64,000 nt of DNA from Raja brachyura (lineage: Eukaryota), in assembly GCA_963514005.1 (NCBI GenBank), contig OY740790.1, forward strand, positions 4,960,001 to 5,024,000, read 5' to 3'. The notes below the pieces were generated by a model that was not told where the DNA came from, did no database searches, and saw only the letters and a list, made by a program, of their open reading frames with translations. Positions 1 through 18,495 of the stretch are shown here, piece by piece (position 1 is the stretch's first letter; every line of letters begins with the position of its first letter). A program made the translations under genes and the position numbers.

Positions 1-1167
1 TGAAAAACCCAAAAGGGAGGGAAAAGGCCTAAAGACAAATTCCCGCATTCTGCCTAATAGTCCGTTGGGGCGAATGCTGAACCACTGGGGGGCAGGAAAT
101 ACCCAGGGGTTGGAGAAGACAACAATGATAAGGTATTGTTATTTTGAATGGGCAAAACACCCGATAAAAGGAGCTTAGGTCTGGTGACGAGAGGATGGGT
201 CAGATGAGGATTGGGTACAACAGGCATTGAATGAATATGTGAAAAATAAACCCAATCCAATAATAGAAGAGATCAAGTATGCCACAGTATGGGAACAGGG
301 ATGTAATCTGTTGAAATTAAAATAGGAGTCTGGAGAGTTAAATTCCTTATCACCCTCATGGAATTTACAGGAGAACCTAGCTCCTCCCTATGGACATCCA
401 TCACCCAACGTAGCGCCGCCAATTCGACCCCCGCCTCCACTCGTGGCGACGGGAGTGGAAGAAGTGACACCTGGATCCGTTTTGATGGTAAAAAGAAAGG
501 TCAGGGTGAAACAAGAATTTAATGATGATGTTACTGACGGTGATGACACCGACAGTGACCTACCGGACCCCAGGAGTGAGAAAGAAAAGGGAATAAAGAG
601 ACAGGAGGCTGTCGTGGGAGATGAATTAAAACCCCCGTCACCAGGAGAGGGTGTCAGGAGGTCAGACAGAGTAAGAAGAAGATCGGTAAAAATTAGACCT
701 CTAAGAGAGGTACCCATGGGAGGACCCAAGGGGGAATGAGGCCAGTTCATTGGCTATATTTAAGAGGGAGTTAGATGTAGCCCTTCTGGCTGAGGGGAGA
801 GAAGGAGAGAAGGCAGGTACGGGATACTGAGTTGGATGATCAGCCATGATCATATTGAATGGCGGTGCAGGCTCGAAGGGCCGAATGGCCTACTCCTGCA
901 CCTAATTTCTATGTTTCTATGTTTCTATGTTAATGTCCCCTTAACTAGTACTGAAGTGAGGAATTTCAAAAAGGAAATGAGAAGCCCCCTAGGGGATCCT
1001 TTATGTCTGGCAGAACAGTTAGATCAGTTACTTGGGGCAAACACTTACACATGGGAGGAGTTAATGGCCATTATGGGGAATCTCTTCACATCCGAGGAGA
1101 GGCAAATGATTAGGGTAGCAGCAATGAGAAAGTGGGAACAGGAGAACCCACCAGGGCAGCAAAATAT
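1..1167 (+). pseudogene. gag: ERV gag remnant (MA to N-terminal CA), interrupted by a CR1 3' end and fused by deletion to pol
   Basis: PNSPLGRML...YCYFEW (MA-like) and NVPLTSTEVRNFKKEM...LFTSEERQMI (CA-like); at ~1167 it jumps to LDPVSRGWPGCIQAVAA (RT connection). Confidence 0.85.
737..930 (+). mobile_element. CR1 LINE 3'-end insertion within gag
   Basis: Matches the CR1 3' end at 62449-62638 and ends in (TTTCTATG)n; the same insertion is at 8310-8503. Confidence 0.9.
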
Positions 1168-3222
1168 TAGATCCAGTCTCCAGGGGATGGCCTGGATGCA
1201 TACAAGCGGTAGCAGCTACCGCAATATTGGTAGAAGAGAGTAGAAAATTAACCTTTGGAGGAGCTCTGGTTGTTTCTACGCCACACACGGTGAGAACCAT
1301 ACTCACTCAAAAATCCAACAGATGGTTAACAGACTCTAGACTTTTAAAGTATGAGGCCATCCTGATGGAAAAAGACGATTTGACTATAATTACAGATAAG
1401 AACCTTAACCCATCCCAATTCCTGTATCCAGCAGAGAAACAGGGTGACGAGGAAGAGGACCCAGTACACTGCTGTAGTACAATAATAGATTTACAGACAA
1501 AGAGTAGAGAAGACTTAGAAGAGCAACCTCTGGCTGAGGGCAGCCGGTGGTTTATAGATGGATCCTCCAGGTGCATAGATGGAAAAAGACATAGTGGGTA
1601 CGGTATAGTGAACGGGGAAACTATGGAGGAAATTGAAAATGGCAGGCTACCTGGTAGTTGGTCAGGTCAATCTTGTGAATTATATGCATTAATGAGAGCT
1701 TTGGAACTATTGGAGGGGAAGGAAGGAACAGTGTATACCGATTCAAAATACGCTTTTGGAGTAGTACACACCTTTGGGAAAATCTGGAAAGAGCGAGGAA
1801 TGATAACCACTCGAGGGAAAGAATTAGCACATGAGCAATTGGTAGGCCAGACACTGGAAGCCTTGCAAAAACCAGAACGAATAGCCATAGCACATGTGGC
1901 AGGGCATCAGAAGGGTAACACCCTAGAGGCCAGAGGAAATAGGGCAGTGGATGAGGTTGCAAAAAGAGCAGCCACAGAACAGATGGTAGAAATGAAGTCA
2001 CTAATACCTTTAAGGGGACAAGAGGAAAAGATACCTATCTTTGGTGAGAAAGAGCAGGAACACATGCGAGAAATGGGGGCTCAGCGTATTTCAAATGGGA
2101 AATGGTGGACACCGGATGGAAAGCAGCTATTGAACAAAGAAATAATGAGAGAATTATTAGGGAGGTTGCATGGACAAAGCCATTGGGGAACACAAGCCCT
2201 CTGTGACACCCTCCTCAGAACCTACGCTTGCCGTGGAATGTATACCATGGCCGGACAAGTCATAGGGGGCTGTGTAATATGTCAGCAAATTAACAAAAAA
2301 AAATCATGAGAGCTGTCCCAGGAGGAGGACAACCATTAGCAGTTAGACCCTTCCAGAGAATACAGATAGATTTCACCAAGCTGCCCCGGGTACAAACCTG
2401 AAAGTACCTGTTAGTGATAGTGGACCATTTCACCAGGTGGGTAGAGGCATTCCCCATGACAACTGCCACCTCACAGGTGGTAGCCAAGATATTACTAGAA
2501 CAAATTATACCCAGATATGGGATTGTGGAAACAATGGACTCAGATAGAGGGACCCATTTTGCCTCCAAAACACATAAAATGATATGTGAAGCATTGGGAA
2601 TATTGGGAAGCATTGGGTATGGAAATTGCATGCATCATGGCATCCCCAGAGCTCAGGAAAGATGGAAAGAATGAATAGCACCTTGAAGACCCAAATCACC
2701 AAGTTGATAGAGGAAACAAGACTCCCCTGGACTAAGTGCCTCCCGATAGCCCTGTTAAGAATCCGAACGGCACCTCGAAAAGACATAGGGATATCACCAT
2801 ATAAGATGTTATTTGGGCTCCCATACTTAGGGAAGATAGAAGGAGTTCCAACAATGCGAGGGAACGATGTGTTCCTGAGGAACTATTTACTGGCAGTGTC
2901 CCAATCTCTTGCAGAACTCAAAATTAAAGGATTGGTGGCCCAGAGCCCACCACTGGACTTCCCAATTCACTCAGTCAAGGCTGGAGACTGGGTATTAATA
3001 AAAACGTGGAAAGAAGAAAAGCTGCAACCTAAGTGGACTGGACCCTACCTGGTGTTACTAATCACCGAGACAGCAGTACGAACAAGGGAGAAAGGGTGGA
3101 CACACGCAAGTCGAGTTAAGGGTCCTGTGGAGGCCCCACCAGACAATATCAGCCCGTGGACTGTGTGCAAAGGAAAGGAACCATTGACTTTTATATTTAC
3201 CAGGAACCCACCGGAAAAATGA
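1168..3222 (+). pseudogene. pol: ERV pol remnant: RT connection, RNase H, integrase
   Basis: WFIDGSS, YTDSKYAF (RNase H); HHCC zinc finger (HGQSHWG...CVICQQ); IQIDF, DSDRGTHF, HPQSSGKMERMN (DDE); WTGPY motif; frameshifts near 2305 and 2600. Confidence 0.95.
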
Positions 3223-5130
3223 AGATTTTGTGTTGGTGGGTCGTGTGTTGGGAAATCACCCAACTTGTAAGTAATGTAACATGCATAAAAATCACAATAC
3301 CACAGAATAGAAGGTCCACCACCATCCCATTTGATGTATGTAAAGGAAAATGATGGTGCGGCTATAGAATGTATGTATGCACCCATCCCTGTAAAGATTG
3401 GCATGCGGTGTTCACTTCATCAAAATATGGGTGGCATCGGACCACCTATCAAACTGATAGGTGGAAAGTGTATCAAAACCCGAACGAGAAATTACCAGGA
3501 TGCGTATATGTGAGCATACAGAGTGTTCAAATGCAGGAAAGTGGGAGGTATTGGACATGTGCAGATACAACAGGGAAGGATGCATGTCTGAAGTTTGAGA
3601 TAGAAGTGAAGCGGGATGGAGAGATGGTAAGATATGAGGAGAAGGGAGAGGTGTTCAAGATAGATGACAGTCAGAATAGGGATCCCGGGGCAACACCAGC
3701 ACCACCAGCAGTTAGCAATGTAAATAGGGAAAATGAGCCGAAGGATCTGAAGATAATGATAGTAGCAGGAGAAACAGGATTAAGGCAGTTATATGAGAAG
3801 GGAACACCAACAGGGGGAAAAGGAGCCAACACCTGGCTAGCCTGGATGATGTACACAGCCAGAAGTATACAACGAACCAATTGTTACACCTGCGCCGGAG
3901 CCAGACCTCAGCTGGTCCCAGTACCATTTCCCCAGAATTGGGATAGAACACCTGGGGTTATGTCATGTATACTACAGCTATTTACGAATCCCCTCTTACC
4001 AAAGAATGCGATATGCCAGAGTTATCATTACCTATTTCCGACCAGCAACAACAATACGAAGGGCCGAAAGGAAGACCCTAGACCTCCTCCATTTACCATT
4101 CCTCTTGGGGAGGAGGGATTTGAGTGCTATACAAGAGATAACCCAGAGGGACAGGACATGGGGAAGGTGCTCAACTGCAATCAGACGTATAACATAACAG
4201 CTGAGGAACTGGGGCCACTGTTCAATAGCTCCTGGCTGAGAAAGCAGATAGTCAGTAGAGCTGATGTCTGGTGGTGGTGCGGGGAGAATACCCTGTGGCC
4301 CCGGTCACCAGGGTCATGGACGGTAACCTGTACCCTCATACAACTGATGATGCCCTTTACCATAGCAGTAGAACATGCTGTAGAACTCAAGGAAGGAAAC
4401 CGACGACAAAAGAGAAAGGTGAAAGGATCATTCGACACACACATCTATATAGATGCGATAGGAGTGCCAAGAGGGGTACCCTATGAATTCAAAGTCAGAA
4501 ACCAGATAGCTGCGGGCTTTGAGTCCATGTTCTTCTGGTGATCCACAATTAATAAACATGTGGACTGGATCAACTACTTATACTACAATCAACAAGGCTT
4601 TATAAATTACACTCGAGATGCAGTTGAAGGATTAGCGGAACAACTGACAGCTACCAGCCAAATGACCTGGCAAAATCGCATGGCCTTGGACATGCTACTG
4701 GCTGAGAAGGGAGGGGTGTGTGTAATGTTTGGTGAACAATGTTGCACATTCATCCCCAACAACACTGCTCCGGATGGGTCAGTGTCAAGAGCCCTAGCAG
4801 GTCTCACCTCTCTGTCTTGGCCTCGAATTGGCTGAGAACTCTGGAGTAGACACCTCCTGGACTGGGTTTCTAGAATCCTGGTTTGGGAAATGGAAGCACA
4901 TCTTTACATCAACCCTAACATCAGTGGTAGTCATGGTGGGGTTACTGTGTTTGTTTGGATGCTGTATCATTCCCTGCGTACGGGGGTTGGCCCAGCGATT
5001 GATAGAAACAGCCCTGACAAAGAACAGTGCTGCCACCATAATGGCTTTCAGAACACAGTATGACCAACGAGAGGTGGACATGGAGGTGAAGAATCTGTTG
5101 ATAGCATTAGAAAAGGAGGATGTAGTGTAA
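3219..5130 (+). pseudogene. env: ERV env (gamma-type), disrupted
   Basis: Signal peptide MKILCWW, CYTC CXXC, furin site RQKR, immunosuppressive domain QNRMALDMLLAEKGGVC, CX6CC, TM helix; stops at 3351 and 4539, frameshift near 4815. Confidence 0.95.
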
Positions 5131-5166
5131 ATCAAAAAGTGGTGTGGCAAAAAGAAAATGATGGAT

Positions 5167-5613
5167 TGTGAGAAAAGGGGTTAACAGACATGGTTGATTT
5201 AAACTAGGAATAGAAAAATATAGCTGAGAAAGAAATAAGGTTTCAACAAAGCCAGACTGTTAGTGGGATAGAAAGTAACGACAGATAGAACAGAGAGAAC
5301 TTTGAGATAAAAAGTAGCAAATAGATAGAACCTTCAGTATAAGCCTTTGACGTCAGGAGACGTTCTGAGGCGTTCCTGGACTTTCTCGTGGGAATGTGGG
5401 CTTTATGTTATAATTAAAAAGAGGCAAAATGGTGAGAAAAGAGGGTGTGGCTATAATGTAATGAAATGAATAAAGATAGAATACATCCCGACCCTCGGGG
5501 TGCCTCTAGGGGGCAGCAAAGGAGAGGCACCTATTCTGCAGAATATTATCTTAATAAAAGCTTCTTTGCTGACTTTGTCTCAAACAGCGTTTGTGATTTG
5601 TTTATATCTCACA
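5167..5613 (+). repeat. 3' LTR of provirus A
   Basis: TGTGAGA...TCTCACA inverted termini, preceded by a purine tract, AATAAA at ~5553; related copies at 9592-10033 and 15600-16069. Confidence 0.92.
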
Positions 5614-5845
5614 ATTACAATAGACAATAGACAATAGACATTAGGTGCAGGAGCAGGTCATTCGGCCCTTCGAGCCAGCACCACTATTCAATGTGATCAT
5701 GGCTGATCATCCCCAATCAGTACCCCATTCCTGCCTTCTCCCCATATCCCCTGACTCCGCTATTTTTAAGAGCCCGATCTAGCTCTCTCTTGAAAGCATC
5801 CGGAGAACCTGCCTCCACCGCCCTCTGAGGCAGACAATTCCACAG

Positions 5846-6688
5846 ACCAATTCAAGACGGTGATAACTGGAGAGCACTTTTCAAAAATCTACATAAAGAC
5901 ATCCCAATAAATAAAATAAACAAATTATTCTCATATCAAATAAAAACTCCAAACATTAGAAACAATCTTTAAAGATTATCAAAATCCTGTTGATTTCCAA
6001 ATTACTTTGGAAGAATTGACCATAAAAATAAAATCTCTCCATTCAAAGAAAGCCTGTGGACCGGACAGCAATGAAATGAAAAGCTCAAGTACAGCACTCC
6101 GGTGATGTACGACATAGTGCATAGGCTGTTCAACATCTCACTACGTTCAGGTTATTTCCCTGATATTTTGTGTCAAGGGTTTATTTCGCCCATTTATAAG
6201 AGTGGAAACAAATTAGACCCAAATAATTATCGTGGGAGCTGTGTCAATAGCTGCCTAGGGAAGTTGTTCTGTAGTATCATAAATAACAGAATGCAGGATT
6301 TCCTTAACATATACAACATTCTCAGTAAAAATCAAATTGTCTTCCTCCCAAAACACCGTACCATTGACTAAATCTATGCGCTCCACACTCTCATTGAATA
6401 ACATATACTCCAAGCAAAAAATGGTAAAATATTTACCTGGTTTATTGACTTTGAGAAAGCATTTGACTCTATTTGGCACGAAGGGCTCTATTACAAACTT
6501 TTCTGTTGTGGTATAGGAGGAAAGGTATATGACCTTATCAAATCAATGTATGTGAATAATAAATATGACGTTAAAATTGTGGAAAATGCACTGATCTCTT
6601 CGCCCAGAGACGAGGCGTCCGGCAAGGCTGCAATCCGAGCCTGACACTGTTTAATGTATATATAAACGATTTCGCAGTAAAGTTGGAC
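5846..6688 (+). mobile_element. Non-LTR retrotransposon RT fragment (L2/Crack-like, clade uncertain)
   Basis: PIYKSGNKLDPNNYRG, NQI.F, F.DFEKAFD motifs; duplicated at 16304-17066. Confidence 0.75.
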
Positions 6689-7164
6689 NNNNNNNNNNNN
6701 NNNNNNNNNNNNNNNNNNNNNNNNNNNNNNNNNNNNNNNNNNNNNNNNNNNNNNNNNNNNNNNNNNNNNNNNNNNNNNNNNNNNNNNNNNNNNNNNNNNN
6801 NNNNNNNNNNNNNNNNNNNNNNNNNNNNNNNNNNNNNNNNNNNNNNNNNNNNNNNNNNNNNNNNNNNNNNNNNNNNNNNNNNNNNNNNNNNNNNNNNNNN
6901 NNNNNNCAGAATAGCAAGTTTAGCAATTCAATATTAATTTCTTAGTGTCAGTTAATGTCAATTAGTGTATGTGTGCATGTTGGTCATTCACGTTATGTAT
7001 GACATGCTGTTACGTGTAGTGCACCAAGATGTGCCGTATTTCCTTCACCAAGGATGTTTATATATATAAACAGGCCTTTCCGAGTGACTGACAAAAACAG
7101 CATATGATTGCATTGAATTAGTACTTTTGATATTGTTGACATGATTGCACTGAATTAGTACTTG

Positions 7165-9591
7165 GGAGAGGCACCTATTTTGCAGAATATTATCTTAATA
7201 AAAGCTTCTTTGCTGACTTTGTCTCAAACAGCGTTTGTGATCTTTTAATATCTCACAATTTGGGGGCTCAGTTCCGGTATTTAATTACTCTGGGCACCTG
7301 ACGGAGGTACACGGACGAAGAGAAGGTGCACCCCGCTGAGTTCAGCGGTCTCAGACTCCTTGCTTACCGTCAGAAGGTTTGAGCGAGTGATGGCCGGACC
7401 AAACAGAGAACTCAGCAAAGAAGTGAAGATGGTTGGAGATTGGTTGGAAATCGCGAAAACCGAGTAATTCTGTGCACAGATCCCGGTTAGAAACTTTGAC
7501 TATTATAGTATAACCTGGGCGATTTGATAAAAGATCGGAGAGGAATTCCGATCAAGATAATGGGAAATGTAAGTGAAAAACCCAAAAGGGAGGGAAAAGG
7601 CCTAAAGACAAATTCCCGCATTCTGCCTAATAGTCCGTTGGGGCGAATGCTGAACCACTGGGGGGCAGGAAATACCCAGGGGTTGGAGAAGACAACAATG
7701 ATAAGGTATTGTTATTTTGAATGGGCAAAACACCCGATAAAAGGAGCTTAGGTCTGGTGACGAGAGGATGGGTCAGATGAGGATTGGGTACAACAGGCAT
7801 TGAATGAATATGTGAAAAATAAACCCAATCCAATAATAGAAGAGATCAAGTATGCCACAGTATGGGAACAGGGATGTAATCTGTTGAAATTAAAATAGGA
7901 GTCTGGAGAGTTAAATTCCTTATCACCCTCATGGAATTTACAGGAGAACCTAGCTCCTCCCTATGGACATCCATCACCCAACGTAGCGCCGCCAATTCGA
8001 CCCCCGCCTCCACTCGTGGCGACGGGAGTGGAAGAAGTGACACCTGGATCCGTTTTGATGGTAAAAAGAAAGGTCAGGGTGAAACAAGAATTTAATGATG
8101 ATGTTACTGACGGTGATGACACCGACAGTGACCTACCGGACCCCAGGAGTGAGAAAGAAAAGGGAATAAAGAGACAGGAGGCTGTCGTGGGAGATGAATT
8201 AAAACCCCCGTCACCAGGAGAGGGTGTCAGGAGGTCAGACAGAGTAAGAAGAAGATCGGTAAAAATTAGACCTCTAAGAGAGGTACCCATGGGAGGACCC
8301 AAGGGGGAATGAGGCCAGTTCATTGGCTATATTTAAGAGGGAGTTAGATGTAGCCCTTCTGGCTGAGGGGAGAGAAGGAGAGAAGGCAGGTACGGGATAC
8401 TGAGTTGGATGATCAGCCATGATCATATTGAATGGCGGTGCAGGCTCGAAGGGCCGAATGGCCTACTCCTGCACCTAATTTCTATGTTTCTATGTTTCTA
8501 TGTTAATGTCCCCTTAACTAGTACTGAAGTGAGGAATTTCAAAAAGGAAATGAGAAGCCTCCTAGGGGATCCTTTATATCTGGCAGAACAATTAGATCAG
8601 TTCCTTGGGCCAAACACTTACACATGGGAGGAGTTAATGGCCATTATGGGGAATCTCTTCACATCCGAGGAGAGGCAAATGATTAGGGTAGCAGCAATGA
8701 GAAAGTGGGAACAGGAGAACCCACCAGGGCAGCAAAATATTAGATCCAGTCTCCAGGGGATGGCCTGGATGCATACAAGCGGTAGCAGCTACCGCAATAT
8801 TGGTAGAAGAGAGTGGAAAATTAACCTTTGGAGGAGCTCTGGTTGTTTCTACGCCACACACGGTGAGAACCATACTCACTCAAAAATCCAACAGATGGTT
8901 AACAGACTCTAGACTTTTAAAGTATGAGGCCATCCTGATGGAAAAAGACGATTTGACTATAATTACAGATAAGAACCTTAACCCATCCCAATTCCTGTAT
9001 CCAGCAGAGAAACAGGGTGACGAGGAAGAGGACCCAGTACACTGCTGTAGTACAATAATAGATTTACAGACAAAGAGTAGAGAAGACTAAGAAGAGCAAC
9101 CTCTGGCTGAGGGCAGCCGGTGGTTTATAGATGGATCCTCCAGGTGCACAGATGGAAAAAGACATAGTGGGTACGGTATAGTGAACGGGGAAACTATGGA
9201 GGAAATTGAAAATGGCAGGCTACCTGGTAGTTGGTCAGCTCAATCTTGTGAATTATATGCATTAATGAGAGCTTTGGAACTATTGGAGGGGAAGGAAGGA
9301 ACAGTGTATACCGATTCAAAATACGCTTTTGGAGCAGTACACACCTTTGGGAAAATCTGGAAAGAGCGAGGAATGATAACCACTCGAGGGAAAGAATTAG
9401 CACATGAGCAAATAGTAGGCCAGACACTGGAAGCCTTGCAAAAACCAGAACGAATAGCCATAGCACATGTGGCAAGGCATCAGAAGGGTAACACCCTAGA
9501 GGCCAGAGAAAATAGGGCAGTGGATGAGGTTGCAAAAAGAGCAGCCACAGAACAGATGGTAGAAATGAAGTCACTAATACCTTTAAGGGGA
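7165..9591 (+). mobile_element. Provirus A' 5' part (R-U5, PBS, leader, gag, pol to RNase H); duplicate of provirus A
   Basis: 7574-9591 aligns with 1-2018 (offset 7573) and shares the CR1 insertion and the gag/pol deletion. Confidence 0.93.
7261..7280 (+). promoter_or_regulatory. Primer binding site, tRNA-Pro type
   Basis: TGGGGGCTCAGTTCCGGTAT just after the LTR end (CA at 7257); resembles the MLV-type Pro PBS TGGGGGCTCGTCCGGGAT. Confidence 0.85.
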
Positions 9592-10033
9592 TGTGAGATA
9601 TAAAAAAATCACAAATGCTGTTTGAGACAAAGTCAGCAAAGAAGCTTTTATTAAGATAATATTCTGCAGAATAGGTGCCTCTCCTTTGCTGTCCCCTAGA
9701 GGCACACCGAGGGTCAGGATGTATTCTATCTTTATACATTTCATTACATTATAGCCACACCCTCTTTTCTCACCATTTTGCCTGTTTTTAATTATAACAT
9801 AAAGCCCACATTCCCACGAGAAAGTCCAGGAACGCCTCGGAACATCTCCTGACGTCAAAGGCTTATACTGAAGGTTCTATCTATTTGCTACTTTCTATCT
9901 CAAAGTTCTCTCTATCTGTCGTGACTTTCTATCCCACTAACAGTCTGGCTTTGTTGAAACCTTATTTATTTCTAAGCTATATTTTTCTATTCCTAGTTTA
10001 ATTCAACCATGTCTGTTAACCCCTTTTCTCACA
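9592..10033 (-). repeat. 3' LTR of provirus B
   Basis: Reverse complement of the 5167-5613 LTR with intact TG...CA ends. Confidence 0.92.
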
Positions 10034-10069
10034 ATCCATCATTTTCTTTTTGCCACACAACTTTTTGAT

Positions 10070-11942
10070 TTACACTACATCCTCCTTTTCTAATGCTATC
10101 AACAGATTCTTCGCCTCCATATCCCCCTCTCGTTGGTCATAATGTGTTCTGAAAGCCATTATGGTGGCAGCGCTGTTCTTTGTCAGGGCTGTTTCTATCA
10201 TTCGCTGGGCCAACCCCCGTACGCAGGGAATGATACAGCATCCAAACAAACACAGTAACCCCACCATGACTACCACTGATGTTAGGGTTGATGTAAAGAT
10301 GTGCTTCCATTTCCCAAACCAGGATTCTAGAAACCCAGTCCAGGAGGTGTCTACTCCAGAGTTCTCAGCCAATTCGATAGACAGAGAGGTGAGACCTGCT
10401 AGGGCTCTTGACACTGACCCATCCGGAGCAGTGTTGTTGGGGATGAATGTGCAACATTGTTCGCCAAACATTACATACACCCCTCCCTTCTCAGCCAGTA
10501 GCATGTCCAAGGCCATGCGATTTTGCCAGGTCGTTTGGCTGGTAGCTGTCAGTTGTTCCGCTAATCCTTCAACTGCATCTCGAGTGTAATTTATAAAGCA
10601 TTGTTGATTGTCGTAGAAGTAGTTGATCCAGTCCACATTTTTATTAATTGTGGGCCACCATAAGAGCATGGACTCAAAGCCTGCAGCTATCTGCTTTCTG
10701 GCTTTGAATTCATCGGGTACCCCTCTTGGCACTCCTATCGCATCTATATAGATGTGTGTGTCAAATGATCCTTTCACCTTTCTCTTTTGTCGTCGGTTTC
10801 CTTCCTTGAGTTCTACAGCATGTTCTACTGCTATGGTAAAGGGCATCATCAGTTGTATGAGGGTACAGGTTCCCGTCCATGACCCTGGTAACCGGGGCCA
10901 CAGGGTATTCTCCCCGCACCACCACCAGACATCAGCTCTACTGACTATCTGCTTTCTCAGCCAGGAGCTATTGAACAGTGGCCCCTGTTGAGCACCTTCC
11001 CCATGTCCTGTCCCTCTGGGTTATCTCTTGTATAGCACTCAAATCCCTCCTCCCCAAGAGGAATGGTAAATGGAGGAGGTCTAGGGTCTTCCCTTCGGCC
11101 CTTCGTATTATTGTTGCTGGTCGGAAATAGGTAATGATAACTCTGGCATATTGCATTCTTTGGTAAGGGGATTCATGAATAGCTGTAGTATACATGACAT
11201 AGCCCCAGGTGTTCTATCCCAATTCAGAAAAAAATGGTACAGGGACCAGCTGAGGCCTGGCTCTGGCGCAGGCGTAACAATTGGTTTGTTGTATACTTCT
11301 AGCTGTGTACATCATCCAGGCTATCCAGGTGTTGGCTCCTGTTCCCCCTGTTGGTATTCCCTTCTCATATAACTGCCTTAATCACGTTTCTCCTGCTACT
11401 ATCATTATCTTCAGATCCTTAGGCTCATTTTCCCTATTTACATTGCTGACTGCTGGTGGTGCTGGTGTTGCCCCGGGATCCCTATTCTGACTGTCATCTA
11501 TCTTGACCACCTCTCCCTTCTCCTCATATCTTACCATCTCTCCATCCCACTTCACTTCTATCTCAAACTTCAGACATGCATCCTTCCTTGTTCTATCTGC
11601 ACATATCCAATATCGACCACTTTCCTGCATTTAAACACTCTGTGTGCTCACATATACGAGTCCTGGTAATTTCTCGTTTGGGTTTTGATACACTTTCCAC
11701 CTATCAGTTTGATAGGTGGTCCGATGCCACCCATATTTTGATGAAGTGAACACCGCGTGCCAATCTTTACAGGGATGGGTGCATACATACATTCTATAGC
11801 CGCACCACCATTTCCCTTTACATACATCAAATGGGATGGTGGTGGACCTTCTATTCTGTGGTATTGTGATTTTTATGCATGTTACATTACTTACAAGCTG
11901 GGTGATTTCCCAACACACGACCCACCAACATAAAATCTTCAT
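10070..11942 (-). pseudogene. env: env of provirus B; SU disrupted, TM subunit ORF open (10070-10849)
   Basis: RQKR, QNRMALDMLLAEKGG, TM helix; stop at 11631 plus a frameshift and deletion in SU. Confidence 0.92.
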
Positions 11943-13163
11943 TTTTCCTGCGTGTTCCTGGTAAATATAAAAGTCAATGATTCCTCTCCTTTGCGCACAG
12001 TCCACGGGCTGATATTGTCTGGTGGGGCCTCCACAGGACCCTTGCGTGTGTCCATCTTTTCTCGTACTGCTCTCGTACTGTTCGTACTGCTGTCTCGGTG
12101 ATTAGTAACACCAGGTTGCAGCTTTTCTTCTTTCCACGTTTTTTATTTATACGCAGTCTCCAGCCTTGACTGAGTGAATCGGGAAGTCCAGTGGTGGGCT
12201 CTGTGCCAGCAATCCTTTAATTTTTAGTTCTGCAAGAGATTGGGACACTGCCAGTAAATAGTTCCTTAAGAATACATCACTGCCCTCGCATTGTTGGAAC
12301 TCCTTCTATCTTCCCTAAGTATGGGAGCCCAAATAACATCTCATATGGTGATATCCCTATGTCTTTTCGAGGTGCCGTTCGGATTCTTAACAAGGCTATC
12401 GGGAGGCACTTAGTCCAGAGGAGTCTTGTTTCCTCTATCAACTTGGTGATTTGGGTCTTCAAGGTGCTATTCATTCTTTCCACCTTTCCTGAGGTCTGGG
12501 GATGCCATTGTGTATGCAATTTCCATTCTATTCCCAGTGCTTCACATGTCATTTTATGTGTTTTGGAGGCAAAATGGGTCCCTCTATCTGAGTCGATTGT
12601 TTCCATAATCCCATATCTAGGTATAATTTGTTCTAGTAATATCTTGGCTACCGCCTGTGAGGTGGCAGTTGTCGTGGGGAATGCCTCTACCCACCTGGTG
12701 AAATGGTCCACTATCACTAACAGGTACTTCCATGTTTTTACCTGGGGCAGCTCGGTGAAATCTATCTGTATTCTCTGGAAGGGCCTAACTGATAATGGTT
12801 GTCCTCCTCCTGGGACTGCTCTCATGATTTTTTTGTTAATTCGCTGACCTATTACACAGCCCCCTATGACTTGTCCGGCCATGGTATACATTCCACGGCA
12901 AGAGTAGGTTCTGAGGAGGGTGTCACAGAGGGCTTGTGTTCCCCAATGGCTTTGTCCATGCAACCTCCCTAATAATTCTCTCATTATTTCTTTGTTCAAT
13001 AGCTGCTTTCCATCCAGTGTCCACCATTTCCCATTTGAAGTATGCTGAGCCCCCATTTCTCGCATGTGTTCCTGCTCTTTCTCACTAAAGATAGGTATCT
13101 TTTCCTATTGTCCCCTTAAAGGTATTAGTGACTTCATTTCTACCATCTGTTCTGTGGCTGCTC
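11939..13163 (-). pseudogene. pol: Integrase region of provirus B
   Basis: ORF 12277-13065 with HGQSHWG, IQIDFTEL, DSDRGTHF, ERMN. Confidence 0.9.
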
Positions 13164-14162
13164 TTATCTTTTTAAAGCAGTCTCATCAATTTATCCCTTT
13201 GTTCCCCACTTTAATCCTTTCTGATATGCCTTCTTTCTCATTCTAAACTCAATTTCTTACTTCTCAGATAGTTTACCCTCCTTTGCAAATGTATTCACCT
13301 TTCTTTTAAAATCTTCCACTGACTCCTCCTGATTTATTACATTCACACCTGTCGTTTCCTCCTTCTGTTACCTCCTCACTGCCTCTCTCTCCTTTCCTCT
13401 CTAAACTGCTTAAGTATATCTAATTGCTTTCCTCTCCCCTTTTCCCACCTTTCCAATTTATCTGTGACATATAATTTGTAATTTTCCAAATTAACTTTAC
13501 TGAAAATAAATCTATAGAAACATAAGCAAAACCAAGCAACCTTCATTTTCCAACTTTCCCCTTTTAAGTTGCAATGCGTTGTTCGTTACCTTACAGCTGT
13601 TCGTAACTTTCCTAATTGCTTACAATTTCTTAAAGGAACACACGCACACACCCTTACAGCATGTGGCCGACAACAAACAAAAGATCACATATATGAACTT
13701 TCTCATTCATTCAAAACCGGTTTTTACACACAAATCACATTCGTTCCATTCTTACTTCAAAGAAATTATGCAATTTTCTACACAGATTCAAGTTTCAAAA
13801 TTAACATTTATATAATTCTTATCTCCCCTTTTAAGTTAAAGTAGGATGGTCTAATCCCCCATCAATCAGGTTCCTGAGCGTTGTGATTGGATAGTGATTC
13901 ACATCGTGATTAGTCAGACTCACCGTCACTCAAATTCTAACCACACCCCACTAAGATCACAACCATTCAAAATCCTAGTCACTCAACATCTGACCACACC
14001 CCACTCCCATTAATCTCCAAACAAAGAAGCTCATTTTGTCTCGATCTCTCAGCAGAGAGAATGCAGCAATTTTATCTCCACAGTCAAGAAACGCAGTCCT
14101 TACACCTCCTCTGTCCTCGTAGTCACTATATTACATTATTCTTATTGCAATTCTACTTTCTG

Positions 14163-14530
14163 CTATTCTACAATATTTTGCATCAACTCCTCATGTACCT
14201 GACCAATCTGTATATGAGTTCCTTCTATAGATTTAATGAAACAACTCACAACAACAATATTTCTTTCAAGTGCTTAAGATGAGCTTCTTCAATTTCCTGA
14301 AATTTCTTTGAGGTTTCTGTCAATTTTTGTTCAAAATCTGTTTTTCCACATATAATTTATAGTTTTCTGTAGCTTTTTTTTAGATGTGACAGTTCCCTTT
14401 TCTATTTATTTCTGTGTTGCTCCTTCCTTTTTAACTTTTCGTACTCAAAACATTTGGCACTGTGATTTTCCTTAGATTTTTGCAATGTTTGAGTGATACT
14501 CTGAATATTCTGTACAGCATCCAAAGTGCC
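14163..14530 (-). pseudogene. FCHO2: Captured intronless FCHO1/2 F-BAR domain fragment inside provirus B
   Basis: Manual translation across frameshifts gives [117 protein letters not shown], matching my recollection of vertebrate FCHO2 F-BAR helices. Confidence 0.85.
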
Positions 14531-14731
14531 CAATCCGCATTATTGGTTCCTTTGGTTAATCAAAATAACAGAACTTAATCATAGTCTCTTTATCTTTACC
14601 CCCGGGGCTTCCTTCTCCCCAAGATTGCCACATTCGCCCCAATGGACTATCAGGCAGAATGTGCGGCTCTTCACCTTTGAGCCTTTTTCTTTCCCCCCCG
14701 GACTCTTACTTTTCCCGTTCCGGTTATCCAT
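14531..14731 (-). pseudogene. Second, diverged gag matrix-like segment in provirus B
   Basis: ATG at 14731, then (after one frameshift) PHILPDSPLGRMWQSWGEGSPGGKDKETMIKFCYFD*PKEPI, versus gag RILPNSPLGRMLNHWGAGNTQGLEKTTMIRYCYFEWAKHPI. Confidence 0.85.
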
Positions 14732-14883
14732 TGTCTTATCGGACTATTCCCGTCCGACAGAACCCTGACCTCTCAGGGTGGTATCCACAAGGAGTTAAAC
14801 TGCCTCCATTGTCTTATCGGACTATTCCCGTCCAACAGACCCCTGACCTCTCAGGGTGGTATCCACGAGGAGTTAAACTGCCT
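14727..14883. repeat. 78-bp direct tandem repeat (2 copies)
   Basis: TCCATTGTCTTATCGGACTATTCCCG... starts at 14727 and again at 14805. Confidence 0.9.
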
Positions 14884-14911
14884 CTCTCTCCTTTAATAAT
14901 TATTTCCCGCT

Positions 14912-15191
14912 TCCCATACTGCGGCATACTTGATCTCTTCTATTATTGGATTGGGTTTATTCTTCACATTTTCATTCAATGCCTGTTGTACCCAATCCTC
15001 ATCTGACTCATCCTCTGGCCACCAGACCGAAGCTCCTTTATCGGGTGTTTTGGCCATTCAAAATAACAATACCTTATCATTGTTGTCTTCTCCGACCCCT
15101 GGGTATTTCCTGCCCCCCAGTGGTTCAGCATTCGCCCCCAACGGACTATTAGGCAGAATGCTGGGATGGGTTTTTCACTTACATTTCCCAT
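14912..15191 (-). pseudogene. gag: gag MA remnant of provirus B
   Basis: MGNVSEKP...KTTMIRYCYFEWPKHPIK, homologous to A' 7560-7870. Confidence 0.88.
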
Positions 15192-15599
15192 TATCTTGAT
15201 CGGAATTCCTCTCCGATCTTTTATCAAATCGCCCAGGTAATACTATAATAGTCAAAGTTTCTTACCGGGGTCTGTGCACAGAATTACTCGATTTTCGCGA
15301 TTTCCAACCAATCTCCAACCACCTTCACTTCTTTGCTGAGTCTCTGTTTGGTCCGGCCATCACTCGCTCAAACCTTCTGACGGTAAGCAAGGAGTCTGAG
15401 ACCGCTGAACTCAGCGGGGTGCACCTTCTCTTCGTCCGTGTACCCCCGTCAGCTGGCCTGGAGTAATTAAATCCCGGAACCGAGCCCCCAAATTGTGAGA
15501 TATAAAAAAATCACAAATGCTGTTTGAGACAAAGTCAGCAAAGAAGCTTTTATTAAGATAATATTCTGCAGAATAGTTGCCTCTCCTTTGCTGTCCCCT

Positions 15600-16069
15600 A
15601 GACATGGTTGATTTAAACTAGGAATAGAAAAAATGTAGCTTAGAAAGAAATAAGGTTTCAACAAAGCCAGACTGTTAGTGGGATAGAAAGTCACGACAGA
15701 TAGAGAGAACTTTGAGATAGAAAGTAACGACAGATAGAACAGAGCACAGAGAGAAATTTGAGATAAAAAGTAGCAAATAGATAGAACCTTCAGTATAAGC
15801 CTTTGACGTCAGGAGATGTTCCGAGGCGTTCCTGGACTTTCTCGTGGGAATGTGGGCTTTATGTTATAATTAAAAAGAGGCAAAATGGTGAGAAAAGAGG
15901 GTGTGGCTATAATGTAATGAAATGTATAAAGATAGAATACATCCCGACCCTCGGTGTGCCTCTAGGGGGCAGCAAAGGAGAGGCACCTATTCTGCAGAAT
16001 ATTATCTTAATAAAAGCTTCTTTGCTGACTTTGTCTCAAACAGCGTTTGTGATTTTTTTATATCTCACA
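15600..16069 (+). repeat. 3' LTR of provirus A' (5'-truncated)
   Basis: LTR sequence ending TCTCACA, followed by the same flank (ATTACAATAGAC...) as LTR 5167-5613. Confidence 0.9.
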
Positions 16070-18495
16070 ATTACAATAGACGATAGACAATAGACATTAG
16101 GTACAGGAGCAGGCCATTCGGCCCTTCGAGCCAGCACCGCTATTCAATGTGATCATGGCTGATCATCCCCAATCACTACCCCATTCCTGCCTTCTCCCCT
16201 TTTCCCCTGACTCCGCTATTTTTAAGAGCCCGATCTAGCTCTCTCTTGAAAGCATCCGGAGAACCTGCCTCCACCGCCCTCTGAGGCAGACAATTCCACA
16301 GACCAATTCAAGACAGTGATAACTGGAGAGCACTTTTCAAAAATCTACATAAAGACATCCTAATAAATAATATAAATTTAAATTATTCTCATATCAAATA
16401 AAAACTCCAAACATTAGAAACAATAATTAAAGATTATCAAAATCCTCTTGATTTCCAAATTACTTTGGAAGAATTGACCATAAAAATAAAATCTCTCCAT
16501 TCAAAGAAAGCCAGCAATGAAATGAAAAGCTCAAATACAGCATTCCGGTGATGTACAGCATAGGCTGTTCAACATCTCACTACGTTCAGGTTATTTCCCT
16601 GATATTTTGTGTCAAGGGTTTATTTCGCCCATTTATAAGAGTGGAAACAAATTAGACCCAAATAATTATTGTGGGAGCTGTGTCAATAGCTGCCTAGGGA
16701 AGTTGTTCTGTAGTATCATAAATAACAGAATGCAGGATTTCCTTAACATATACAACATTCTCAGTAAAAATCAAATTGGCTTCCTCCCAAAACACCGTAC
16801 CACTGACTAAATCTATGCGCTCCACACTCTCATTGAATAACATATACTCCAAGCAAAAAAATGGAAAAATATTTGCCTGGTTTATTGACTTTGAGAAAGC
16901 ATTTGGCACGAAGGGCTCTATTACAAACTTCTCTGTTGTGGTATAGGAGGAAAGGTATATGACCTTATCAAATCAATGTATCTGAATAATAAATATGACA
17001 TTAAAATTGTGGAAAATGCACTGATCTCTTCGCCCAGAGAAGAGGTCCGGCAAGGCTGCAATCCGANNNNNNNNNNNNNNNNNNNNNNNNNNNNNNNNNN
17101 NNNNNNNNNNNNNNNNNNNNNNNNNNNNNNNNNNNNNNNNNNNNNNNNNNNNNNNNNNNNNNNNNNNNNNNNNNNNNNNNNNNNNNNNNNNNNNNNNNNN
17201 NNNGTCCTGCACTGACCTCAGGGTCAGGGGTCAGATGAGTGCGGTTAGAGGGCGGGTGGTCAGAGTGAATGACTTCCCCGAGATCACGACCACACTGGTA
17301 TTCTGACCTAGGCCAGGGTCAGAGGTAAAGTGGTGGGGGTCAGGGTTAAAGGGCTGGGATGCCCTGACTTGCCTCGGACGAGGGGTGAGGTCAGGTTTCA
17401 GTCAGAATGTGTAAGGTCAGGGGTCAGCAGGTGCTGCAGTGAGTTTGGGGGGGTGGTTTCGTGGTTGAGGGTCGCTGTCAGGGTGAGAGGTCAGTGCGGG
17501 GGAGGGGCAGTTGTAACTGGTTCCACTGAGGAATAAAGGTCATTCACCCATCAGCCGTCTCCTGTCTCCTTCACACTCGCTCCGCCAAGCCGACCTTACT
17601 CTTTAATGCTGAGCAACCATTTCTTAACAAGAAACACCAACTGCAAAGTCCATGCAGATTCAGATTCAATGGAAAGGTCGCAAGTGATAGGAGTAGAATT
17701 AGGCCATTCGGCCCATCAAGTCTACTCCGTAATTTAATCACGGCTGATCTATCTTTCCCTTTCTCCATTTTCCTGCCTACTCACCATAACCCCTGACATC
17801 CGTTGTAATCAAAAATGTATTTATCTCTGACTTAAAAAGGCCGTTGACCTGGCCGTCCATGGCCGTCTGTGACAATGGGTCCCACAGATTCACCACCCTC
17901 TGACTAAATAAATTCCTCCTCATCTCCCTCCTAAAGGAACGTCCTTTCACTATCTCCCACTAATGGAAACATTGTGAAAGTGGCCTTTCACAAAGTAATG
18001 ACCATTTATTAAAGATGTGGCAAACAAAGTTAGACACAAAAAGCTGGAGTAACTCAGCGGGACAGGCAGTATCTCTGGAGAGAAGGAACGGGTGATGTTT
18101 CGGCTTGAGACCCTTCCTCAGACAGTCGAGAGAGGGTCTCGACATGAAACATCACCCAATCCTTCTCTTCAGGGATGCTGCCTGCCCTGCTGGGTTACTC
18201 CAGCATTTTGTGTCAATCTTCAGTGTAAACCAGCATCTACAACTCACAGTGCCCAGAGCAAAACATAATAGATGGTGCCCTCCCCTAATTCCCCATTTTT
18301 TGGTGCCCTCCCCTAATTCTCCACTGTAGAGAAACAGACCCTTCTGCCCTCCAAGTGCACGCTGACCATAGTTTTTTATAAATTACACTGTTGTGCAGGG
18401 AATAGATAAGAAAGTGGGATAACCTAGTTAGCTTGAGTTAACGTACAAACACGTATGTCTTTGAGAAGTGGGAGGAAACCAGAGCACCTGGACAA

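Follow-up and report, generated by a model that had tools for sequence, protein, structure and literature searches.

The window, by which is meant the whole 64,000-nt stretch of skate DNA analyzed here, contains a defective endogenous retrovirus (ERV) whose gag region carries a piece of the host gene FCHO2. This segment can be described with considerable confidence as shortened host FCHO2 exons, likely copied by an ERV from a back-spliced circular RNA (circRNA) of exons 2-8 and likely carried as non-coding cargo. On balance, the evidence favors a specific course of events, wherein a retrovirus reverse-transcribed one full turn of circFCHO2, entering and exiting at the same place, and the product was then amplified and passed between ERV families.

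The carrier, provirus B, lies on the minus strand at 15602-9592. It opens with a 5' LTR remnant of ~110 nt (15494..15602, 99% identical to 9592-9700), followed by a primer-binding site (15471..15490), which intact siblings have at the same position and which we take to be of the tRNA-Pro type. A first matrix segment (14899..15191), the gag 5' end of the window's own LTR family, retains an unbroken DEDW...QALN motif. An 80-nt tandem duplication (14727..14884, 96%) marks its seam with a second matrix segment (14530..14691), which, judging from the junction strings, arrived with the cargo from an older family; the stretch 14691-14161 is 82% identical to older-family loci, gaps included. This second segment runs up to the DEDW-motif junction and does not share a frame with the FCHO2 cargo that follows (14164..14529), itself cut short to positions 329-700 of a 763-nt circle. 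Between cargo and pol lies an AT-rich, non-FCHO2 segment of 1 kb (13166..14161) common to window-type copies, for which no match was found in Pfam, the older-family loci or the three host loci. Part of it also occurs in an FCHO2-free deleted provirus (L138), and a first-look search with it returned 784 candidates. The 3' end of pol comprises the last RNase H codons and a broken integrase (12100..13165, rve E 2e-20) and is followed by env with a broken 5' part (10070..11942, TLV_coat E 1e-13) and, from sequence comparison, the 3' LTR (9592..10033). Domain searches of the element or its relatives reveal Gag_p30, an MLV-type integrase C-terminus and a TLV_coat env, which make it a candidate class I (gamma/epsilon-like) ERV. 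A sibling whose two LTRs are 98.8% identical, and which has a target duplication of 5 bp, matches provirus B at 96.7% over 6060 columns. Homology to the neighboring provirus ends at 14899 and picks up again at 13165. As the sequence-only reading of this element had it, CA, PR and RT are missing; of RNase H, nearly all is gone. The ATG at 14731, which it took as the start of the matrix-like segment, instead opens a 50-codon frame other than the matrix-like one.

The surroundings of provirus B are rearranged. Window positions 1-17066 hold nested proviral duplications and an inversion: 1-2018 recurs at 7574-9591, provirus B is inverted relative to provirus A, and an LTR with 1 kb of flank is duplicated. 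A same-family LTR in the opposite orientation (15600..16069, plus strand) forms, together with its flank to 17066, a duplicate of 5186-6638 through local rearrangement. Elsewhere in the genome, near-identical tandem copies of provirus B with a 5954-5955-nt period and shared LTRs occur at G000:C10:5.277-5.291 Mb and G000:C283:52-59 kb, and an array with a 45-kb period lies at G000:C29:21.63-21.83 Mb; in all of these, the host region was probably duplicated segmentally or in tandem. Further along the window, at 33000-60000, ~2-kb tandem repeats of immunoglobulin constant-domain exon pairs, presumably IgW/NAR-like, number at least 6-7 units with 94-98% identity. Each unit holds a retroelement fragment, and the constant-region array is unusually long.

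The identity of the cargo is secure. The peptide on which an FCHO1/2 F-BAR match had been proposed was stitched from three minus-strand frames, every piece of which is found in the sequence, and a single frame, its stops replaced by X, aligns to the F-BAR domain of human FCHO2 (2v0o_A) at E 1.4e-21. The minus strand at 14529-14164 codes for FCHO2 residues ~119-242, spread over three frames. Against the FCHO2 exons of this genome it is 87.2% identical (E 1e-137); the 355 aligned bases include 21 mismatches, and none of the five indels is a multiple of three. A Pfam search of nine window frames returned no FCH or F-BAR match because these frameshifts hide the domain. Alignment to host FCHO2 resolves the segment into the 3' part of exon 5 (14529-14397), exon 6 (14396-14306), exon 7 (14305-14199) and the first part of exon 8 (14198-14164), all on the minus strand. 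The 5|6, 6|7 and 7|8 junctions are crossed at 14396, 14305 and 14198, respectively, without an intron, so the source was a spliced RNA. In a sibling, a natural open frame of 73 aa is 91-94% identical to skate FCHO2 proteins, and the named matches among the best 120 listed are all FCHO2 or carry the FCHO2 domain set. Together with the human structure match, these protein matches rule out FCHO1 as the donor. A single L1-type processed pseudogene inserted after integration is likewise ruled out, by 63 cargo-bearing loci that share the left junction. These 63 loci were chosen as best matches and are not a random sample, and some may be segmental duplicates; the DNA search behind them gave 519 first-look candidates, of which 40 were scored, and neither figure is a copy number.

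The exon order in an older family of siblings is what sets this capture apart. A search with skate FCHO2 gave the first sign, as residues 119-267 are followed in siblings by residues 9-31 and 52-120. The cargo of the older family reads exon 5 (3' part)-6-7-8-2-3-4-5 (5' part), with both ends in exon 5. When the host circle of exons 2-8 is doubled, it aligns without a break from 329 to 1095 in L041 and from 329 to 1091 in L042, at 94% in each, the latter ending at next-turn position 328 versus 332 in L041. These two are the only ones of 29 older-family loci with a full, unbroken 763-nt turn; many others share a common internal deletion (circle ~66-142). After de-duplication, 25 of the 29 cross the joint between exons 8 and 2, and in 25 of the 29 the cargo ends at position 332, so that a start at 329 and an end at 332 define the geometry of the product. 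In all 18 aligned rows, the 8|2 joint coincides with the splice donor of exon 8 and the acceptor of exon 2, mostly with no base gained or lost; it is also spanned by a contig of sequencing run X16. A tblastn search with the full 885-aa FCHO2 of 20 sibling loci found no exons outside 2-8, with matches confined to residues ~9-270. All 34 window-type loci stop near circle position 700, short of the joint. In L047 and L048 (G000:C3:33.94 Mb and C31:12.49 Mb), a deletion joins circle position 438 to 55 and removes the joint; this sub-lineage is left with a long FCH-domain frame that takes the top score in a Pfam FCH search. The earlier proposal of capture from host mRNA therefore survives in part: a spliced FCHO2 RNA does reside in the provirus, but its circularly permuted exon order makes a linear mRNA an unlikely source.

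The host locus offers a plausible origin for such an RNA. Host FCHO2, on contig C3, was located by a muHD profile and tblastn; its exons were not among the matches of a PF00611 profile search of the genome. Exons 2-8, set by their AG/GT borders, measure 92, 75, 142, 153, 105, 99 and 97 nt, 763 nt in total. Each is present once in 210 kb of the locus, which rules out, in this genome, a host tandem duplication as the source of the rotated order. The introns flanking exons 2-8 span 38.8 and 18.1 kb. They hold the two arms of a 154-nt inverted repeat (76%), one 241 nt ahead of exon 2 and the other 114 nt past exon 8. Among the 36 acceptor/donor pairs of exons 2-9, the 2/8 pair is the only one where an inverted match lies no more than 600 nt from either splice site; a direct match near both sites occurs at one other pair. 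Over 6-kb windows at the host exons, inverted and direct matches are about equally frequent (three versus two), so the signal of the 2/8 repeat lies in its proximity. Long flanking introns and inverted repeats are classic features of back-splicing and could also promote trans-splicing. In oligo-dT RNA reads from a related species (~5% of the run read), seven reads cross the exon 1-2 joint and eight the 8-9 joint, these normal linear joints being the only ones seen at the loose ends, and 16 pass straight through the exon 5 opening point. Both the rotated joint and the exon 5 opening are thus foreign to the normal mRNA. The exon 2-8 circle itself did not appear among these reads.

A linear RNA could in principle carry the same joint. 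If trans-splicing or exon repetition had produced a non-colinear transcript (...8-2...), template switches at the same homology one repeat apart would leave the same 8|2 joint and the same ends, and both viral junctions do fall at one short homologous site. Such a template is nevertheless improbable, as the host exons are single-copy, the long flanking introns and the unique 2/8 inverted repeat are features of back-splicing, and circles are the commoner source of non-colinear exon joints.

A circular template would account for the product as follows. Host FCHO2 would form an exon 2-8 circle, aided by the inverted repeat at both splice sites, and this circFCHO2 would be co-packaged. Reverse transcriptase may then have switched to it at a short homology within the gag matrix, gone around the 763-nt circle once and returned to the viral template. 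Because RNase H degrades the template in the wake of the polymerase, synthesis on a circle would have to exit at its entry point. Independent end points would come to lie within four bases of each other about 1% of the time, an argument for one turn that is weakened because both switches share one short homology. At the insertion site, the cargo splits the matrix motif DEDW...QALN, which remains whole in the first matrix segment of the window and in several relatives, as well as in a contig of run X16. The exact pattern of the uninterrupted older-family site gave no match in this genome, so the direct parent is not seen here. Homology at the left junction amounts to 1-2 bases. At the right junction, matrix resumes in a short host-like stretch that agrees with today's host at six of eight bases; a match at all eight requires the assumption of two ancestral host bases. 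No poly(A) was found at the right junction of the aligned older-family loci, and circular RNAs lack a poly(A) tail.

The position of the cargo in gag, behind most of the matrix, naturally invites comparison with gag-onc viruses such as v-fes/v-fps, whose defective genomes carry host sequence in gag and need a helper. The skate element is likewise defective, with host sequence in gag and a presumed need for a helper. On this analogy, an ancestral matrix-F-BAR fusion protein that would have promoted budding or interfered with endocytosis had been proposed, and a few loci do have a stop-free FCHO2 frame over residues 119-267. The junctions argue otherwise. The left junction has the same phase in 52 of 55 cases, with FCHO2 one base off matrix, and in 53 of 55 a stop lies at most five codons upstream in the FCHO2 frame; in the older family the viral motif itself supplies this stop. 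The 1-nt offset reported earlier is thus real, but it is original to the junction rather than decay of the window copy. Neither end of the insert is in frame with matrix, and the back-splice shifts the frame again: since 763 leaves a remainder of 1 on division by 3, the two halves of the cargo do not share a frame. With the stop just upstream, gag is disrupted and no fusion would be read. Capture also begins at about residue 119 and thus omits the F-BAR domain's first 118 residues. Unlike v-fes/v-fps, then, the skate cargo has no in-frame fusion, kinase, complete F-BAR or protein selection. An in-frame fusion to CA beside the cargo was rejected as well: in L125, which has a partial CA ahead of the cargo, the long gag frame stops before reaching it, and neither L126 nor L127 has a plus-strand frame of 280 aa. 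The matrix-FCHO2 junction of L125 (4040-4137) also appears as an inverted duplication within that one copy.

Patterns of substitution in the cargo bear on the same question. Differences from host FCHO2 in 28 older-family and 26 window-type loci (two cargo-free loci were skipped) were classed by their sharing among loci, with expectations drawn from the observed substitution types. Private changes in the older family comprise 45 silent, 184 missense and 15 stop, against 56.7 silent expected, for an omega-like ratio of 1.34. Minority-shared changes include 13 silent of 48 (10.6 expected, p 0.25), and the window-type loci give p>0.2 in all sharing classes. The purifying selection that a dN/dS check was meant to reveal is therefore not borne out, as neither private nor minority-shared changes carry a silent excess; from the sequences at hand, both classes look neutral. 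The majority class of the older family differs, with eight silent and seven missense changes where 3.7 silent were expected (p 0.016). This excess counts against strict neutrality and is the one selection result in favor of a fusion protein. At least part of the class is host-lineage change since capture, and three of the seven missense sites carry the Amblyraja/Leucoraja residue. Overall, junction phase largely refutes the fusion protein, which we regard as extremely unlikely.

The FCHO2 circle is not the only host sequence in the older family. Downstream of it and of the remaining matrix lie RRBP1 and then CCHCR1, after which pol resumes close to the end of RNase H. The RRBP1 cargo consists of ten host exon pieces with one exon skipped and one internal deletion, and a shared stretch is visible at its left junction. 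The CCHCR1 cargo, from host contig C1351, comprises the last exons, the stop and the 3' UTR (Pfam HCR). Both are in linear exon order, and a circular order is ruled out for them. In L041 (G000:C10:54.45 Mb) they occupy 5510-6334 and 6491-7115, and they recur in many siblings; some copies have long open frames across them. These spliced pieces occupy the place of CA-PR-RT in the older family and are absent from the window type.

The window type is a chimera. Its LTR differs from that of the older family (49 bases alignable), its integrase is only about 70% alike, and its own matrix is followed by the second matrix piece and shortened FCHO2 of the older family. All 34 shortened copies fall in one group with support 100/98 in a midpoint-rooted tree whose bootstrap was not fully settled. 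The shortened piece also occurs in other LTR/env contexts (L091, L125, L126, L143), at least three of them different. LTR pairs of the window type diverge by 0.4-2.2% (six pairs) versus 3.4-8.3% in the older family (11 pairs). Target duplications of 4-5 bp, all distinct, flank 13 of 15 LTR pairs and attest to separate integrations. Those of the window type measure 5 bp (7 of 7 found) and those of the older family 4 bp (four) or 5 bp (two), hinting at different integrases; the duplication at L088 is 5 bp. Of 20 loci fetched around gag or cargo matches, seven have an RT active-site motif in a long frame, so potential helpers existed. The defective elements may have spread in trans through relatives that kept gag and pol. 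The window type would then descend from a copy from which the 3' half of the circle was deleted and which entered younger LTR/env backbones by recombination. The same shortened piece in at least three LTR/env contexts and in the youngest copies might instead suggest that the captured RNA was selected as an RNA element, for packaging, export or silencing evasion, and that its 5' half was kept across backbones for this reason. This is very unlikely: hitch-hiking with the matrix segment and the 1-kb neighbor explains the spread, the cargo has many indels, and older-family copies bear independent internal deletions.

The capture can be placed on the skate tree from residue states. The copies side with Amblyraja, Leucoraja and the host at all five residues that set these apart from Rhinoraja, and keep the Amblyraja/Leucoraja state at all three host-specific residues. 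On these protein characters, the capture would postdate the Rhinoraja split and predate the host-specific changes. Viral flanks and window-type ends occur in runs X15 and X16, from two differently labelled organisms, one of which may be the source of the window. A search of sequencing runs listed no RNA run carrying these sequences, a result with no bearing on expression.

Several known systems resemble parts of this family. The mouse circRFWD2 pseudogenes, with 33 high-confidence copies, LTR-rich flanks and a mechanism called mysterious (Dong et al. 2016, PMC4897178), are among the closest. They share a diagnostic non-colinear exon joint, dozens of copies, the lack of poly(A) and LTR flanks, and the link between LTRs and circRNA pseudogenes is repeated as a suggestion in a later review (PMC5408686). 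Of the traits used there to recognize circRNA retrocopies, the skate family has a joint at splice sites in 25 of 29 older loci, no outside exons in 20 loci and no host tandem duplication in 210 kb. The window copy alone, cut before the 8|2 joint, would belong to the low-confidence class of that study. Unlike circRFWD2, for which the available text maps no viral junctions, the skate copy sits inside gag with both junctions resolved, in a provirus with a primer-binding site, integrase, env, paired LTRs and target duplications; it represents a full turn and comes from a cartilaginous fish.

LTR-mediated retroposition through template switching at microsimilarities provides the second parallel (Tan et al. 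2016, PMC5131818). That paper describes mRNA donors and cites maize Bs1, HERV-K/FAM8A1 and a mouse four-gene retrocopy. As in those cases, a partial spliced host RNA between LTRs replaces internal ORFs, several parental genes contribute to one element, short homology may mark the switch points, and secondary rounds proceed as a non-autonomous element. Of the features of an LTR retrocopy given there, the skate family has intronless host RNA inside one LTR element, both LTRs, a target duplication and non-autonomous secondary amplification, with 63 cargo loci and distinct target duplications. The difference is that one skate donor is in back-spliced order; the words circular and circRNA do not occur in the main text of that paper. 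Crocodilian ERVs have also captured host RNA in multiple copies in a non-mammalian vertebrate, KIT-ligand in CrocERV29 and nectin3 in CrocERV31 (PMC4299795). Those ORFs are under purifying selection, in contrast to the skate cargo, which is out of frame and drifting. In recKoRV (PMC6112702), an older degraded element has likewise recombined into a younger retrovirus backbone and been remobilized; the available text mentions no host-gene cargo, unlike the skate element. FCHO2 itself is known to produce circles in human and mouse, from exons 19-20 (PMC10838848) and 17-21 (PMC12583663), exons that differ from those of the putative 2-8 circle. A literature search of incomplete coverage, which leaves out the supplements of PMC4897178 where the LTR context of circRFWD2 may be shown, found no skate ERV paper, no circRNA capture with mapped proviral junctions and no ERV capture of FCHO2, including the capture in other vertebrate ERVs that the sequence-only reading had mentioned.

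Taken together, this family likely shows the route by which circRNAs are copied back into genomes, left open in the available text on circRFWD2 (PMC4897178). A provirus-borne product with both junctions and a length of one turn is the expected trace of template switching onto a co-packaged circle. If this is true, circRNAs are packaged in germ-line retroviral particles, and the missing mechanism for LTR-associated circRNA pseudogenes is supplied. A specific circRNA would also be dated in skates, the first with resolved viral junctions in the literature searched. An exon 2-8 circFCHO2 is predicted in skate gonad, and any genome can be screened for LTR elements with rotated exons whose start equals their end. 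The protein-coding novelty of the captured FCHO2 is unimportant. With three host cargoes in one element and one of them passed between ERV families, skate ERVs shuffle host sequence.
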